64,000 nt of DNA. Source: a phage. The notes under the pieces are model-generated. The model was not told the DNA's origin and did not search any database. It saw only the letters and a program-made list of their open reading frames with translations. Each line of letters opens with the position of its first letter. Position 1 is the first letter of the stretch. This document shows, piece by piece, positions 26,521 to 32,510 of the stretch. A program made the translations under genes and the position numbers. Where the stretch lies: NCBI GenBank assembly GCA_014685065.1, contig GCA_014685065.1_3930.1. One strand, 5' to 3'.

Positions 26521-26551
26521 ATTTAAGGACTCTCGTAAGAACCCTTAGAAG

Positions 26552-28459: not shown

Positions 28460-28542
28460 AATAAGACTTTGGCATGGGACGGAGGAGTTGAACCACTTTG
28501 AAACGGTTTTGGAGGCCGTTGCTCATGCCTTAGAGTCTTAAC
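28460..28542 (-). tRNA. tRNA-like gene, possible Trp (anticodon CCA); atypical D-region and T-stem
   Basis: Perfect acceptor GTGGGAC/GTCCCAT with CCA; loop CTCCAAA; D-loop over-long and T-stem with mismatches, may be degenerate. Confidence 0.35.
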
Positions 28543-28684
28543 ATCGTCCCACACTATAATTCGAAGCTTACCGTATTTTCACAACACTGTAAAGCCCCTT
28601 CTCAGATTATTTACATGTTCTGGAAAACATGAGATACAGACCACCTCCTTACACGGAGACCCGATAAGGTCGTCTAAGCAATCT

Positions 28685-28761: not shown

Positions 28762-29008
28762 CTAAGGGTGCATTAATCTTTAAAGACTCTCTTAGAAAGC
28801 CCTTAAAGATGCCCACCTTATTAATCATACCGTGGGCGAGTACGCCAAATTCTTTGATGAGGGATTGGAAGACCTCACTGGTGTTTAGCCTATCAAGCTA
28901 CTGCCAGAAAAACATTGTCGTTTGCATTTATTTTAAATTTGCAAAATAGACGCTACGCAACGAAAACTAAGGTTACTATAAAGTGGTCACATCTCAATGT
29001 CAACAACT

Positions 29009-29087: not shown

Positions 29088-29573
29088 TCACAGCATTGTT
29101 ACCCCTTCGTGTACCTCTCTGTGGCAATTTGCACACAGTAATACACACTTATCAACTTCAGACTTCATTACCTCTATAGAGAAGTGTTTTTGTCCTACTG
29201 TGAAGTCCTTTGTATTAGGGTCTAAGTGGTGAAACTCTAAAGCCTTTATGCACTTATTGTATCCACAAATTGAGCAACAACCACCTTTGTAATCAACTAA
29301 AACCCTCTTAAGTTTGTCACGAGACTTTTTAACGTGTTGTGACTTCGCTTTCTTTTCTTCATCGGGGTTTTTGTATTGTTTCAGAATACCATTTGAAATA
29401 CATTCATCACAATACTTTCTTGATTTTGGTGTTTGTTTTCCACATGAATGACAAGAGCCTTCTTGTCTTCTTTTTGGATGACTCTTGTTGTTTACCCTTG
29501 CAGCACAAGAGCGTGAACAATATTTTCCGCCTTTAACGGCTTTGTTGTCACAATCTTTATTAGCACAAAACAT
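29088..29573 (-). CDS. HNH homing endonuclease with N-terminal Cys-rich zinc-finger repeats
   Basis: C-terminal HNH motif (CCSICGYN...LEFHHLDP...CVLLCANCHREVH); four CxxC-type pairs N-terminally; ORF-track start at 29732 would overlap tRNA-Met so start set at MFCANKDC. Confidence 0.7.
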   Translation of the reverse strand: MFCANKDCDNKAVKGGKYCSRSCAARVNNKSHPKRRQEGSCHSCGKQTPKSRKYCDECISNGILKQYKNPDEEKKAKSQHVKKSRDKLKRVLVDYKGGCCSICGYNKCIKALEFHHLDPNTKDFTVGQKHFSIEVMKSEVDKCVLLCANCHREVHEGVTML

Positions 29574-29589
29574 AATATCACCAACGAAT

Positions 29590-29666
29590 TGGAGGTTCAG
29601 ATGGGAATCGAACCCACATTCATAGGGCTTATGAGACCCCTGCATTACCTTATCTGCGACTGAACC
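29590..29666 (-). tRNA. tRNA-Met (anticodon CAU; elongator vs initiator vs Ile2 unresolved)
   Basis: Acceptor GGTTCAG/CTGAACC, anticodon stem GGGGT/GCCCT with G-U ends, loop CTCATAA, T-loop TTCGATT. Confidence 0.6.
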
Positions 29667-29670
29667 ATAT

Positions 29671-29746
29671 TGGTAGAAGTGGAGGGATTCGAACCCATCG
29701 CCTGTCAGATTAAAAGTCTGCCGCATCACCATTCTGCTACACTTCC
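29671..29746 (-). tRNA. tRNA-Lys (anticodon UUU)
   Basis: Anticodon loop CTTTTAA, T-arm similar to tRNA-Lys(CUU), CCA encoded. Confidence 0.6.
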
Positions 29747-29752
29747 ATTAAA

Positions 29753-29894
29753 ATTATCTTTGTAGATAAGCTATCCAGACTTGCTTAAGGTCTGTAGCGA
29801 TGTGCCTTGTTGGGTTTAAATCTAGAATTTACCCTTTCACTCTTTGTGGTCGCATACTCACAGGTAAGCTTAATAACTTATCTACAAAGATAAT
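29753..29894 (-). repeat. perfect 18-bp inverted repeat pair flanking a 106-bp core (hairpin RNA or MITE-like insertion)
   Basis: ATTATCTTTGTAGATAAG at 29753-29770 and exact reverse complement at 29877-29894; core holds CAGAC-TTGCTTAAG-GTCTG hairpin. Confidence 0.5.
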
Positions 29895-29895
29895 T

Positions 29896-30028
29896 ACCAG
29901 ACCGTTGTTTATCATCTTAAGTGCTACCATTACACCAACTCGACATCTGCCGAGTGAAGGAATCGAACCTTCGCCTTTTCTTTACCGGAGAAATAGATTG
30001 TTTAAGTTTTGCTGTAAACGGTCTTCTG
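29896..30028 (-). repeat. spacer element copy a (CCAGACC...GGTCTTCTG family) containing tRNA-like T-arm and D-arm in permuted order
   Basis: Closing stem AGACCGTT/AACGGTCT; internal GGCGAAGG-TTCGATT-CCTTC T-arm-like hairpin followed by GAGTTGGTGTAATGGTAGCAC D-arm-like segment. Confidence 0.4.
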
Positions 30029-30040
30029 TAAATTTGTTGA

Positions 30041-30116
30041 GCCAGACCAAGTTTTAAATTTTCAAAATTAAATTGGCTTGAAATTTCATACATTCTTGCT
30101 GTATTTGGTCTTCTGC
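30041..30116 (-). repeat. spacer element copy b (CCAGACC...GGTCTTCTG family)
   Basis: GCCAGACCAAG...TTGGTCTTCTG closing inverted repeat; conserved ACAGCAAG box in minus sense. Confidence 0.4.
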
Positions 30117-30202
30117 TCCTTTAAAGAATACTCGTAAGAACCCTTTAAGGGAGGGGCTAAATAGCCCTCTCAAAACATCATCTTGAAATACTTATTATAA
30201 TT

Positions 30203-30519: not shown

Positions 30520-30529
30520 TTAATACATT

Positions 30530-30591
30530 GCCAGACCGTGTTTTTTCTTTTATCCGCAAAAAGTATTTTGTTGCTGAATACGGTCTTCTGC
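30530..30591 (-). repeat. spacer element copy c (CCAGACC...GGTCTTCTG family)
   Basis: GCCAGACCGTG...ATACGGTCTTCTG closing inverted repeat with ~45-nt structured loop. Confidence 0.4.
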
Positions 30592-30672: not shown

Positions 30673-30683
30673 AATTCTTAATG

Positions 30684-30759
30684 ACCAGACCAAATCTCTT
30701 CTTTGTCCGATTTACCTTCAGATGAATAAGATTAAGTTTGCTGTAATTGGTCTTCTGTC
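30684..30759 (-). repeat. spacer element copy d (CCAGACC...GGTCTTCTG family)
   Basis: GACCAGACCAAA...ATTGGTCTTCTG closing inverted repeat; conserved ACAGCAAACTTAA box in minus sense. Confidence 0.4.
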
Positions 30760-30954: not shown

Positions 30955-30986
30955 CACTTTAACATTATTTTTTAGTGGTTGTCAAG
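30955..30986 (-). promoter_or_regulatory. candidate sigma70-type promoter for the tRNA operon
   Basis: Minus-sense TTGACA-N17-TTAAAG with AT-rich upstream tract, ~25 nt before tRNA-Pro 5' end; AACCACT/AGTGGTT inverted repeat overlaps it. Confidence 0.35.
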
Positions 30987-31042
30987 AACTTTTTTAAAAT
31001 ATTTTTCAGTATCTTAGAAAAGCTCTCATTTCGTTTCTATGT

Positions 31043-31082
31043 AGAACATATTAAAGGGTATCAAACACATTGTCAATACCCT
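31043..31082. terminator. hairpin AAAGGGTAT...ATACCCTTT (terminator-like on plus strand)
   Basis: 9-bp perfect arms, T-run follows on plus strand; lies just downstream of the vWA gene stop. Confidence 0.3.
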
Positions 31083-31094
31083 TTTTAAAACTTT

Positions 31095-32510
31095 TTACCA
31101 GATGTAACGGTCAATCATTACTGCTTTGAGCATTACGCTGATTGGGTCAAACTTCTCACCACCAAGCAGAGCTTTTAAAGTGGCTGGAGAGAACCCTGAT
31201 ACCATTGCTACACCATTATCCTTAACAGATACTTCGCAAGTACCATTACGGTTTGCTAAGTACCAGAATACCAGTTGTGGCATTTTGTATCCAGCTTTTT
31301 TGTACTTACTACGAATCGCTTCAAAGTTTGTACGACCATTAGCTCCATCAACCTGATTGAACTCCATATCAGAGAAGATAATAAGCTTACTTGGCATATC
31401 TTTCTGAGTCAAGTTGTTTCTCTTACCTGTTTCAAGAATGCGGTCAAAAGCTGCTTGTAAGTTAGTTGAGCCATATTCAACGTGTCGCATCACCTGACGA
31501 TGACGGTTTCGTAAATCACCACTCAGTTCGATGAAGTGAGGGTTTGTCGAATAAACCATCAACTCATTCTTAAAGCAACCTGTATTGCGTTCTGCTACAT
31601 ACAAGGCAAGTGATACACCAATATCCAGAGCAGTAATGGAGCCAAAATTCACCCAAGACATTGAACTTGATACATCAGACATACACAAGATGTTTTCACC
31701 TTCTGCCATCCAGTTTGGTAGTGCTTTCCACTGCTCATTAGCAACATCTGCATTACCATACTTGACAGATTTAATCACATCGTATGGGTAAACAGCACCA
31801 GCGTTAATCTTAGTCTCACCTTTTGATAAGGACTCGATGTAAGCTTTGTAACGCTCTCCATCTTTACGGTTAAACAGTTTTTGGTAACGTGCAGCAGCAA
31901 GTGAAGGAATCTTACTGTAGTCAATCTTACCAAACTCATTAGCAGAGATTTTTTGCTCAACTGTATCAGATAGTGCAGACAACAGTGTGCGATACTCTTT
32001 CTCACTCAAGTTTGCAAACTTGCAGAAACGTTTTACAAACTGTTTGTGACGTGGTTTTACTCGTGGTAACCACTTAGCTGCTAAACCTGCTGTTGCAGGG
32101 TCTAGTAAAGCTGCTTCTAAATGTTTGAAGGCATCTGTCTCGAAACGAGTACCTACAAAGATTTTGAAGTCATCAAAGCGACCAAGCTCTGCAATCTTAT
32201 CCATAATGCGAAGAACCTGCGTAGGCTCTAAAACTTTATCTTCAATCGCTTGAAGTAAAACAGTTCGGAAAGCTTTACGCTCACCCATACCTTCTCGTAC
32301 ATCTCGCATATGCAGTAAAATACGAACTGCAACATCAACATCCTCATGCAAAGCTTTGTAGAACAAGTCTGGTAAGATTTCTACATTGCTACGGCTGGAA
32401 CCAGCAGCTTTGTAAAAGTCCACAAGAGCAGACATTGATGAAGTATGGTTTACAGCACCATTTTCAGTTCGACCTGCATGAAGGTGCGCATGTTTAAATA
32501 ATTCGCTCAT
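31095..32510 (-). CDS. von Willebrand factor A (vWA) domain protein with helical N-terminal domain
   Basis: 471 aa; MIDAS-like DxSxS motif (MSDVSSSMS) and downstream Thr/Asp positions (GSTNL, IIFSDMEF) typical of vWA. Confidence 0.55.
   Translation of the reverse strand: MSELFKHAHLHAGRTENGAVNHTSSMSALVDFYKAAGSSRSNVEILPDLFYKALHEDVDVAVRILLHMRDVREGMGERKAFRTVLLQAIEDKVLEPTQVLRIMDKIAELGRFDDFKIFVGTRFETDAFKHLEAALLDPATAGLAAKWLPRVKPRHKQFVKRFCKFANLSEKEYRTLLSALSDTVEQKISANEFGKIDYSKIPSLAAARYQKLFNRKDGERYKAYIESLSKGETKINAGAVYPYDVIKSVKYGNADVANEQWKALPNWMAEGENILCMSDVSSSMSWVNFGSITALDIGVSLALYVAERNTGCFKNELMVYSTNPHFIELSGDLRNRHRQVMRHVEYGSTNLQAAFDRILETGKRNNLTQKDMPSKLIIFSDMEFNQVDGANGRTNFEAIRSKYKKAGYKMPQLVFWYLANRNGTCEVSVKDNGVAMVSGFSPATLKALLGGEKFDPISVMLKAVMIDRYIW

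Follow-up and report, generated by a model that had tools for sequence, protein, structure and literature searches.

A conserved permuted tRNA-like RNA in a Felixounavirus tRNA cluster is probably a Y-RNA-like partner of a Ro60-like protein

Introduction

Ro60/Y-RNA particles are conserved from bacteria to humans, and the role played by the tRNA-like half of the bacterial Y RNAs is an open question. In the bacterial RNA YrlA, a protein-binding motif at the 5′ side is followed by V, T, closed acceptor-like (AS) and D stem-loops that together mimic tRNA, and its gene shares a strand with that of Ro60 and lies no more than ~ 4 kb from it (Chen et al. 2014, PMC4201824; see also the structure paper 10.1101/312249). 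In M. smegmatis, where the AS of YrlA has 7 bp, the RNA is cleaved by RNase P and acquires CCA in vivo (PMC4201824). The subject of the present work is an RNA element, here termed copy a, which lies in a spacer of the tRNA cluster of a phage and has its T arm, acceptor-like stem and D arm in a permuted order. It was analysed within a 64,000-nt stretch of DNA (GenBank assembly GCA_014685065.1, contig GCA_014685065.1_3930.1), which is referred to as the window.

Phages are already known to encode proteins of the Ro60 type. The Thermus phage phiLo carries a Ro60 gene with the Y-like RNAs Yrl1 and Yrl2 beside it, for which the proposed roles are the hijacking of host RNA decay enzymes (PNPase) and the evasion of defence (Hu et al. 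2025, PMC12135203). In the Felixounavirus Bas63, the gene for gp130, a protein of Ro60-like structure, stands directly upstream of tRNA genes, and gp130 counters the ppl defence, also when moved into T7 (PhageMaP preprint 2024, PMC11482910). The authors of that preprint guess that 'some tRNA genes … are possibly Y RNAs', and no RNA is identified there (PMC11482910).

Results

Copy a folds into a permuted tRNA-like structure

The window derives from a Felixounavirus, and the region in question matches 336 phage records, nearly all of them from Felixounavirus or other Ounavirinae, with hosts that include Escherichia, Salmonella, Shigella and Citrobacter. A total of 26 tRNA genes was called by ARAGORN in the window, on the minus strand between 25438 and 30929. 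Rfam confirmed 24 of the 26, and at the gathering score detected nothing in the cluster besides tRNAs. Copy a occupies 136 nt of the minus strand (29893–30028) and sits within the 456-nt spacer that runs from tRNA-Asp to tRNA-Lys.

In the minus sense, the element begins with the 5′ strand of a closing stem, AGACCGUU (30017–30024), and continues with a conserved single-stranded box, UACAGCAA (30009–30016), which corresponds to a family consensus of UUYCAGCAA. The 5′ region as a whole reads CAGAAGACCGUUUACAGCAA. It is followed by CUAU and a V hairpin, UUUCU-CCGGUAA-AGAAA (29977–29993), that resembles a variable arm or an anticodon arm, and then by a canonical T arm, GAAGG-UUCGAUU-CCUUC (29956–29972). 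An acceptor-like stem-loop, ACUCGGC-AGAU-GUCGAGU (29938–29955), adjoins the T arm and has 7 bp, including one G·U pair, with a 4-nt loop and no CCA. A canonical D arm, GUGU-AAUGGUA-GCAC (29921–29935), is preceded by a U and a G at what would be tRNA nucleotide positions 8 and 9. The element is closed by the 3′ strand of the closing stem, AACGGUCU (29906–29899, pairing with 30017–30024), and by a near-invariant G at 29898. At the junction, the 8-bp closing stem is followed by a 10 × 9-nt internal loop and then by a 5-bp helix. The RNA ends emerge opposite the acceptor stem. The minimum-free-energy structure computed with RNAfold is exactly this multi-branch fold. A preliminary description of the sequence had placed a T arm and a D arm in the wrong order within a closing stem and a box at 29896–30028, with ACTCGGC and GTCGAGT pairing across a 4-nt linker, and each of these parts was recovered in the present analysis; the V hairpin between the box and the T arm had been absent from it.

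The T/acceptor/D arrangement is beyond chance. A strict pattern was defined, comprising a UUCRANN T loop on a 5-bp stem, directly followed by a 7/7 hairpin, 2 nt and a 4-bp D stem with GG in its loop. This pattern occurs once in the window and in none of 300 first-order-Markov random 64-kb sequences, both strands being searched. When the two halves of copy a were re-joined in silico in the normal tRNA order, ARAGORN called a 74-nt tRNA-Thr(GGU). As it stands, copy a receives no tRNA call at threshold from either ARAGORN or the Rfam tRNA model. The latter aligns to the V hairpin and the T arm as if they were an anticodon arm, a variable loop and a T arm, but the score of 22 bits falls short of the gathering score (29). 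Neither the sequence nor the RNAfold structure has a bulge-helix-bulge splice motif at the junction.

Several other assignments of the element were considered and rejected. A two-piece transfer-messenger RNA (tmRNA) does not fit, since ARAGORN calls no tmRNA in the window, the Rfam tmRNA and tmRNA_permuted models do not match copy a, the D stem is a real one and there is no tag reading frame. The V hairpin was rejected as a genuine anticodon arm on account of its variability among relatives, and the CUUAA/UUAAG helix beside the internal loop was rejected as an 'anticodon stem' because it is not kept in phage SUSP2; it was excluded from the covariance model. A coding open reading frame (ORF) on the opposite strand (29800–30057, annotated in phage AYO145A) has no Pfam match, and its frame is interrupted in Suspvirus and Mooglevirus.

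The element is conserved across the Ounavirinae

The corresponding element was extracted from Felix O1, SUSP2 (Suspvirus), Henu11, and Mordin and Moogle (both Mooglevirus). Copy a is conserved across four Ounavirinae genera, and the T arm, the D arm, the closing stem and the box are kept in all of the relatives compared. The acceptor-like stem is swapped wholesale, from ACUCGGC-AGAU-GUCGAGU to ACACGU-UACG-GCGUGU and to ACCCUUC-GCCAAACA-GAAGGGU, and the replacements in Suspvirus and Mooglevirus are fully compensatory. In the last of these forms, that of Mooglevirus, G-CCA is encoded directly after the 3′-type strand, as in a real tRNA gene of that phage. The V hairpin behaves otherwise. Its loop is CCGGUAA in the window (with C at position 33), 6 nt long in Felix O1, CUGGUAA in SUSP2 and CUGAUAA in Henu11, so that the would-be anticodon is GGU in the window vs GAU in Henu11, and the hairpin is missing at this site in Mordin and Moogle. 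As the acceptor stem is maintained by compensation while the V hairpin lacks the constraint expected of an anticodon arm, a decaying tRNA is ruled out and a decoding tRNA is disfavoured. The preliminary description had also raised the possibility that related phages hold an intact tRNA at this site; in the relatives examined the site holds the permuted element instead.

Two existing annotations touch the locus. In Escherichia phage REP5, a 131-nt 'tRNA-Thr_GGT' is annotated across copy a and the adjacent copy b described below (L088, 360–490), and in AYO145A a hypothetical protein of 85 amino acids is annotated on the opposite strand (L001, 3197–3454), the frame of which is not conserved and is broken in the other genera. 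Both are misannotations.

The closing stem is a module that recurs in the cluster

The preliminary description had regarded the element as one copy of a repeated spacer, and this was borne out: the closing-stem module occurs four times in spacers of the tRNA cluster, as copies a to d, of which only copy a contains the tRNA mimic. The shared box is present in all four. Copy b (30038–30115, minus strand) is a short module with no tRNA-like insert. Copies c (30527–30590) and d (30681–30757), which are also short and on the minus strand, fill the tRNA-Met/tRNA-Asn and the tRNA-Glu/tRNA-Met spacer, respectively. All four copies have in common the sequence CAGAAGACC-NNN-UWCAGCAA … NNN-GGUCUGG, in which the NNN positions covary between copies.

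Across the wider family set out below, the near-invariant motif is 5′ AG-stem-UUYCAGCAA … stem′-CU-G 3′, and folding of distant elements gave the common closing module 5′ AG-stem-UUYCAGCAA … AAAA-stem′-CU-G-WUAA. Conservation was counted in 76 non-redundant members. Within CAGCAA, 75 of them retain each of the two C residues and the G, 74 and 70 retain the final two A residues, and 65 retain the first A; the G after the 3′ strand of the closing stem is present in 74. The pair at the foot of the stem alternates between A-U and U-A, and the adjacent pair remains G-C. The UUYCAGCAA motif differs from the GNCGAAN0-1G or CGAA motif of YrlA and the phiLo Yrl RNAs.

A neighbouring gene encodes a protein with a predicted Ro60 fold

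The gene for a protein of 471 amino acids (31095–32510, minus strand) lies directly upstream of the tRNA cluster, and copy a is found 1.07 kb downstream of it on the same strand. The protein contains the Pfam domains DUF2828 and DUF7788, the latter a von Willebrand factor A (vWA)-type domain bearing a DxSxS motif, and belongs to PHROG 850, which is annotated 'RNA-binding protein'. An AlphaFold2 model built on 40 homologues had a mean predicted local distance difference test score of 88. When the model was compared with the PDB using Foldseek, the top 11 matches were all Ro60, Rsr or TROVE proteins, including the Ro60 of Thermus phage phiLo, in full-length alignments with E-values of 2e-8 to 1e-6 and template modelling scores of 0.41–0.65; isolated vWA domains ranked after them. 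The residues of D279-x-S281-x-S283, together with T349 and D381, are invariant in the 40 homologues and form a set typical of a vWA metal site. The protein is thus predicted to have the Ro60 fold, namely a ring of HEAT repeats closed by a vWA domain with a MIDAS motif, and is presumed to be the partner of the copy a RNA. The protein family was detected by tblastn in 710 phage records, including 95 mycobacteriophages in which it is annotated 'Ro-like RNA binding protein'. Given its genus, its Ro60-like structure and its position upstream of tRNAs, Bas63 gp130 is very probably the orthologue of the 471-amino acid protein of the window.

Two sigma-70-like promoters were identified on the minus strand at 30956–31076, between the Ro60-like gene and tRNA-Pro and ahead of the first tRNA, and probably serve the cluster of tRNAs and Y-like RNAs. 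No minus-strand terminator-like site was predicted between 29600 and 31150. Because the promoters lie upstream of the first tRNA and no terminator is predicted, the modules are probably transcribed along with the tRNAs and freed by tRNA processing.

Related RNAs accompany the protein gene in distant phages

The distribution of the RNA was explored in 80 viral contigs encoding homologues of the protein (38–98% identity). A pattern scan found permuted T/closed-acceptor/D units near the gene, and on the gene strand, in about ten distant loci. A MAFFT alignment of 13 distant elements was too ragged to serve as a structural seed, and an iterated covariance model seeded from the Ounavirinae was used instead. 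The first model (R1) was built from seven Ounavirinae sequences only and searched against the window and 80 loci (75 distant viral loci with the gene and five Ounavirinae records; 842 kb), giving 83 matches at E ≤ 10, of which 81 were on the gene strand. The 44 best matches were then used to rebuild the model (R2), which gave 132 matches at E ≤ 1, all 132 on the gene strand. Copy a matches both models over its full length (R1, 159.8 bits; R2, 123.8 bits, E 2e-23). The short copies were matched by R2 at 33.2 bits (b; E 0.0016), 37.5 bits (c) and 41.3 bits (d), and the last two by R1 at 37.9 and 38.0 bits, respectively.

An R2 match was present in 39 of the 74 distant viral loci at E ≤ 0.01 and in 58 at E ≤ 1. 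Of 63 strong matches, 40 lay within 300 nt of the gene and none overlapped it, and about half of the strong matches were short and without the tRNA-like part. In a second, independent set of 80 contigs with the gene, taken from bacterial genome assemblies and metagenome-assembled genomes, 84 R2 matches were obtained at E ≤ 0.1, all on the gene strand and mostly 0–300 nt upstream of the gene. At some loci the modules form tandem arrays of three to seven, and some stand kilobases from the gene. Since many module-bearing DUF2828 loci contain no tRNA gene at all, the module follows the protein gene rather than tRNA clusters.

Individual examples illustrate the range. In Mycobacterium phage Gabriela the match (R2, 65 bits) falls in the unannotated gap just after the Ro-like gene. 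In Bacillus phage Izhevsk it lies in a tRNA cluster ~ 2.2 kb upstream of the gene (60 bits), with weaker copies just upstream of the gene, and in Sinorhizobium phage phiN3 ~ 1.3 kb upstream (50 bits). Staphylococcus phage S-CoN_Ph3 has three tandem short copies just downstream of the gene, overlapping tiny annotated 'hypothetical proteins', while Campylobacter phage CP8 has one copy just upstream of the gene and Listeria phage LP-083-2 has three copies upstream. Judged from these sequences, the RNA–protein pairing appears to recur in phages of Proteobacteria, Firmicutes, Actinobacteria and Campylobacterota, as well as in many prophage-like contigs. Apart from tRNA, no family of Rfam 15 covers any part of the window element or of 12 other loci, whether at the gathering score or at E ≤ 10 (the presence of a YrlA model in Rfam was unconfirmed), and no description of these RNAs was found in the literature searched on DUF2828, YrlA, phage Ro60, Felix O1 and Bas63.

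Covariation supports the common structure. In the 44-sequence alignment, 98.2% of cells were paired, compared with 64% after shuffling and 36–43% after sliding, and 22 of 23 pairs had changes on both sides; in the 132-sequence alignment the value was 95.4% against 59%. All seven modelled pairs of the closing stem and all seven acceptor-like pairs covary across the family, as does the stem of the T arm, and covariation extends to all helices.

The part enclosed by the module is more diverse. In 18 distinct, strictly defined permuted elements, the acceptor loop is usually 3–8 nt long and often a tetraloop (GAAA, GUAA or UACG), and in 4 of the 18 it starts with N-CCA (P ~ 1.5e-4 at 1/64), the four being L086 2127–2165 (Mordin), L054 6563–6618, and L069 6843–6901 and 9527–9582. 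By analogy with the YrlA of M. smegmatis, the N-CCA in the loop suggests that such members may be opened by RNase P and 3′ trimming. At two further sites (L052 4730–4839 and L054 4754–4859), the CAGCAA module encloses a D arm, an anticodon arm and a T arm in the non-permuted order, with a weak or absent acceptor stem; these units are called tRNA-Thr and tRNA-Asn, respectively, by ARAGORN and Rfam. Both topologies of tRNA-like cargo are therefore found within the module.

The association was also examined in reverse: viral contigs were scanned with a 15-base form of the 5′ motif, which returned 80 loci with 81 sites. The closing stem and the G were present at 19 of the 81 sites, most of which are confirmed by R2, often as tandem arrays. 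A DUF2828 gene was found in the stretch for 5 of these 19 sites, on the same strand in every case, vs 1 of the 62 stemless sites. The remaining 14 stem sites lie in stretches of 1.9–13.7 kb taken from mostly much larger contigs, and the gene may lie elsewhere or be dispensable.

Further observations were made at individual loci. R2-matched modules with no DUF2828 gene in the stretch, often in tandems of two to four, occur in L176, L189, L192, L195, L219, L225, L237 and L246, and the ORFs near the modules in L192, L219, L237 and L246 include ClpP, SPFH, FKBP and an arginyl-tRNA synthetase-like protein. In Listeria phage LP-083-2 (L091, 6815–8026) a gene for an RtcB-like RNA ligase lies 1.3 kb downstream of the DUF2828 gene, and in L027 (1257–1707) a permuted tmRNA gene, detected by ARAGORN and Rfam, lies ~ 3.3 kb upstream of it. 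About half of the DUF2828 loci adjoin tRNA clusters. The ligase, the permuted tmRNA and the tRNA clusters hint at a link to RNA repair or translation.

Discussion

Comparison with described systems

The element shares with YrlA a docking stem formed by pairing of the RNA ends, the interior order of V, T arm, closed acceptor-like stem-loop and D arm, the retention of tRNA identity nucleotides in the T and D loops, and the company of shorter paralogues that lack the full mimic (YrlB beside YrlA, copies b to d here). A YUAY sequence stands ahead of the V region in YrlA, and CUAU does so in the window. In some family members the acceptor stem is 7 bp long and the end is of the CCA type, which is also reminiscent of YrlA. 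The gene lies near a Ro60-type gene on the same strand, provided that 'Ro60 orthologue' is widened to mean any protein of the Ro60 fold. There are also differences. The presumed docking motif is UUYCAGCAA with a G on the 3′ side, not GNCGAAN0-1G or CGAA; the presumed partner is a DUF2828/DUF7788 protein that is Ro60-like by fold only and non-TROVE in Pfam; N-CCA is present in the acceptor loop of several family members; the tRNA-like unit of some relatives is non-permuted; the copies in the window are located inside a tRNA operon; and the window element has no matching Rfam 15 family. Because the CGAA-type motif is missing and the protein fails membership of TROVE at the sequence level, the RNA was filed outside YrlA proper.

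With phiLo, the locus has in common a phage-encoded Ro60-fold protein and adjacent phage-encoded genes for Y-like RNAs. The phiLo Yrl RNAs, however, were selected for a stem-bulge-stem containing a CGAA motif, with no description of them as mimics of tRNA, and the phiLo protein is named a Ro60 homolog, with a PDB title of 'Trove domain' (PMC12135203), whereas the window protein matches by fold only. The arrangement in Bas63 is that of the window, a Felixounavirus Ro60-like gene directly upstream of tRNAs, but where the preprint suspects annotated tRNAs, the candidates put forward here are four unannotated spacer elements.

Circularly permuted tRNA genes, of the type found in Cyanidioschyzon merolae, and archaeal split tRNAs also place the 3′ half (T arm and 3′ acceptor strand) before the 5′ half (5′ acceptor strand and D arm), and have a short intervening loop where the mature ends would lie, with acceptor strands complementary across it. 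The window element differs from these in lacking a functional anticodon loop and a bulge-helix-bulge junction, and its ends extend into a conserved, putatively protein-docking stem. Two-piece tmRNA, which is found in bacteria and phages, likewise has a tRNA-like domain in permuted order, but pseudoknots and a tag reading frame are both missing from the window element, and its D stem is a true one.

A probable Y-RNA-like partner of the Ro60-like protein

Copy a is a real, conserved, structured RNA gene, and it is neither a decayed tRNA nor a permuted gene for a decoding tRNA. The interpretation that we regard as probable is that it encodes a Y-RNA-like, YrlA-type non-coding RNA of ~ 130 nt, made up of a closing module that docks on the Ro60-like protein and a permuted tRNA-like domain that is displayed by it. 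The RNA would be transcribed along with the tRNA cluster, from the promoters that immediately follow the Ro60-like gene, and released by the enzymes that process the flanking tRNAs. The stem formed by its 5′ and 3′ ends, with UUYCAGCAA on its 5′ side and the G on its 3′ side, would act as the docking module for the Ro60-like protein. Such a role is suggested by the strict co-location of module and gene, their shared strand and the conservation of the module. The V hairpin, T arm, looped acceptor-like stem and D arm would probably present an L-shaped tRNA mimic, and copies b, c and d would carry the docking module alone, as paralogues in the way that YrlB is to YrlA.

The tRNA-like part of bacterial Ro60/Y-RNA particles serves as a tether or gate. 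By analogy, the mimic in copy a may recruit or occupy a factor that recognises tRNA, candidates being an exoribonuclease, RNase P, the CCA-adding enzyme, and tRNA-modifying or tRNA-cleaving enzymes. We infer, then, an RNA that accumulates, binds through its stem module and recruits or blocks such a factor through its tRNA-like part.

A number of observations weigh against this interpretation. The Ro60 likeness of the protein is one of fold alone, since Pfam gives only DUF2828 and DUF7788, and no TROVE, and since neither phmmer nor a family-profile search of the PDB sequences found a Ro60 chain. The 5′ region of copy a lacks GNCGAAN0-1G (or CGAA), the motif through which YrlA and Y RNAs bind protein, and the sole GGCGAAG of the element falls at the V/T junction, where Felix O1 has GGAGAGG, so that it is not conserved. 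Bona fide modules occur in stretches of 3.6–12.7 kb that contain no DUF2828 gene. The folding-energy z-score of the single copy a sequence is modest (−1.7), and the covariation counts come from alignments that had been fitted to the model, which biases them towards the structure, although the slide control and the hand-read replacements in the Ounavirinae are independent of model fitting. Finally, Bas63 gp130 alone, supplied from a plasmid or from T7, counters ppl (PMC11482910), and since the protein works in T7 the phage RNAs are unnecessary for the ppl phenotype.

In the first of the other explanations, the modules are cis-acting, either as structured spacers that guide or insulate the processing of the tRNA precursor or as operators in untranslated regions through which the Ro60-like protein regulates its own synthesis, the tRNA-like insert being an extra handle for RNase P or other processing. 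The modules of the window do fill the tRNA–tRNA spacers exactly, and the distant copies mostly abut the start or stop of the gene, as elements of an untranslated region would; the action of gp130 in their absence fits as well. It is nonetheless unlikely in view of the modules at loci with no tRNA genes, in tandem arrays and kilobases from the gene, and of T- and D-loop identity nucleotides and a covarying acceptor stem, which exceed the needs of a processing handle; moreover, the known Ro60 partners of the same layout act in trans. It could instead be that copy a is a free-standing tRNA decoy that acts without the Ro60-like protein and soaks up a host tRNA-targeting defence nuclease or tRNA-modifying enzyme, much as anticodon nucleases are countered by phage tRNA clusters. 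Copy a is embedded in a cluster of 26 tRNAs, its T, D and acceptor features are of tRNA grade, and the N-CCA that follows the 3′-type acceptor strand in 4 of 18 relatives suggests genuine tRNA-like end processing. Yet the conserved anticodon loop that is the usual target of such nucleases is missing, and a decoy would leave the CAGCAA/G stem module, the insert-free copies and the strict linkage to DUF2828 unexplained; we consider it rather improbable.

The two explanations offered in the preliminary description fare less well. One was a circularly permuted or split tRNA gene, the product of which would be rearranged or ligated into a decoding tRNA such as tRNA-Thr(GGU), or would act as a two-piece tRNA. 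The topology that it named, T arm, closed acceptor stem and D arm, is indeed present, the re-joined halves are called tRNA-Thr(GGU), the REP5 record carries a tRNA annotation of that very type over the region, and CCA is encoded in some relatives. A gene for a decoding tRNA is a different matter and is very hard to sustain. No anticodon loop is conserved, the putative anticodon hairpin having C33 in the window, a 6-nt loop in Felix O1, GAU in Henu11 and no counterpart in Mooglevirus; the junction has no bulge-helix-bulge, and bacteria, to our knowledge, do not have the splicing endonuclease that permuted tRNA genes require. The phage also has a tRNA-Thr(UGU) already, copy a is called at threshold by neither ARAGORN nor the Rfam tRNA model, and the occurrence of the stem module without any tRNA-like insert weakens the permuted or split gene further. 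The other explanation was a conventional tRNA that had decayed within a repeated spacer, with its D-like match and acceptor pairing arising by chance. The T arm and variable region do resemble the phage's own tRNA-Ile, and phage tRNA clusters contain pseudo-tRNAs. Chance pairing of this kind is scarcely credible, however, for a pattern found in none of 300 random windows, conserved in four Ounavirinae genera with the whole acceptor stem replaced by compensation, and repeated with the same architecture in unrelated phages.

Taking copy a as a Y-RNA-like partner of the Ro60-like protein, a broader proposal can be put forward, on which we are evenly divided. The 'CAGCAA-stem' Y-like RNAs may constitute a large family, undescribed in Rfam 15 and in the literature searched, of dedicated partners for the DUF2828 branch of Ro60-fold proteins, with members in phages of at least four bacterial phyla and in many contigs that look like prophages. 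A single docking module would carry interchangeable cargo in the form of permuted mimics, non-permuted units or small hairpins. Through RNase P and 3′ trimming, the N-CCA subset could yield two-piece, CCA-ended and possibly chargeable particles. As an anti-defence phenotype is on record for one such protein, Bas63 gp130, the family may represent widespread counter-defence or RNA surveillance.

Such a family would provide a second, much larger and phage-centred set of Y-like RNAs, with another docking motif and another branch of the protein family. It would be rich in natural variation, with closed and CCA-encoding acceptor stems, permuted and non-permuted cargo, and cargo-free copies. The Ro60 likeness of the protein was already known from the 2024 preprint, and the permuted topology had been named in YrlA; what appears to be new, as far as the sequences go, are the actual candidate RNAs, in unannotated spacers. 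The guess made there of Y-RNA partners for the Felixounavirus anti-defence protein is thereby converted into four precise candidate loci. The RNAs would also explain many unannotated 'spacers' and tiny hypothetical ORFs beside DUF2828 genes in hundreds of phage genomes, and they flag a recurring annotation error, in which spurious tRNA or ORF calls are placed over them.

Other features of the tRNA cluster

A long hairpin of ~ 150 nt (29747–29898, minus strand) stands directly between copy a and tRNA-Lys. Its stem of ~ 28 bp, with arms at 29752–29774 and 29873–29895, is kept in five other Ounavirinae, and RNAalifold reports six pairs changed on both sides, four of them within the long stem; the hairpin has no Rfam match. 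The 495-nt spacer between tRNA-Met and tRNA-Ile (29095–29589, minus strand) contains a Cys-rich ORF (29088–29732) that matches no Pfam family as delimited here. Felix O1 has an ORF in the corresponding place, which carries the annotation of an HNH endonuclease, and HNH genes are dotted through the cluster in other records. The tRNA-Ile/tRNA-Arg spacer (28772–28961, minus strand) is matched weakly, and only in part, by the tmRNA model of Rfam (15.9 bits; gathering score, 47), which is probably noise.

The 26 called tRNAs cover all amino acids except Trp. At ~ 28476–28550 on the minus strand there is a tRNA-like sequence with CUCCAAA as its anticodon loop (CCA = Trp). UGGGACG and CGUCCCA form its acceptor pair, GCCA is encoded, and the D region is long and atypical; the sequence is uncalled by ARAGORN and scores 21 bits with the Rfam tRNA-Sec model. 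A 25-nt box, reading roughly AAGGGUUCUUACGAG.GU.CUUUAAA in the minus sense, is present in three copies in spacers of the cluster (26522–26546, 28779–28803 and 30121–30145), two of which immediately precede tRNA-His and tRNA-Arg, respectively, while the third marks the 5′ edge of copy b.

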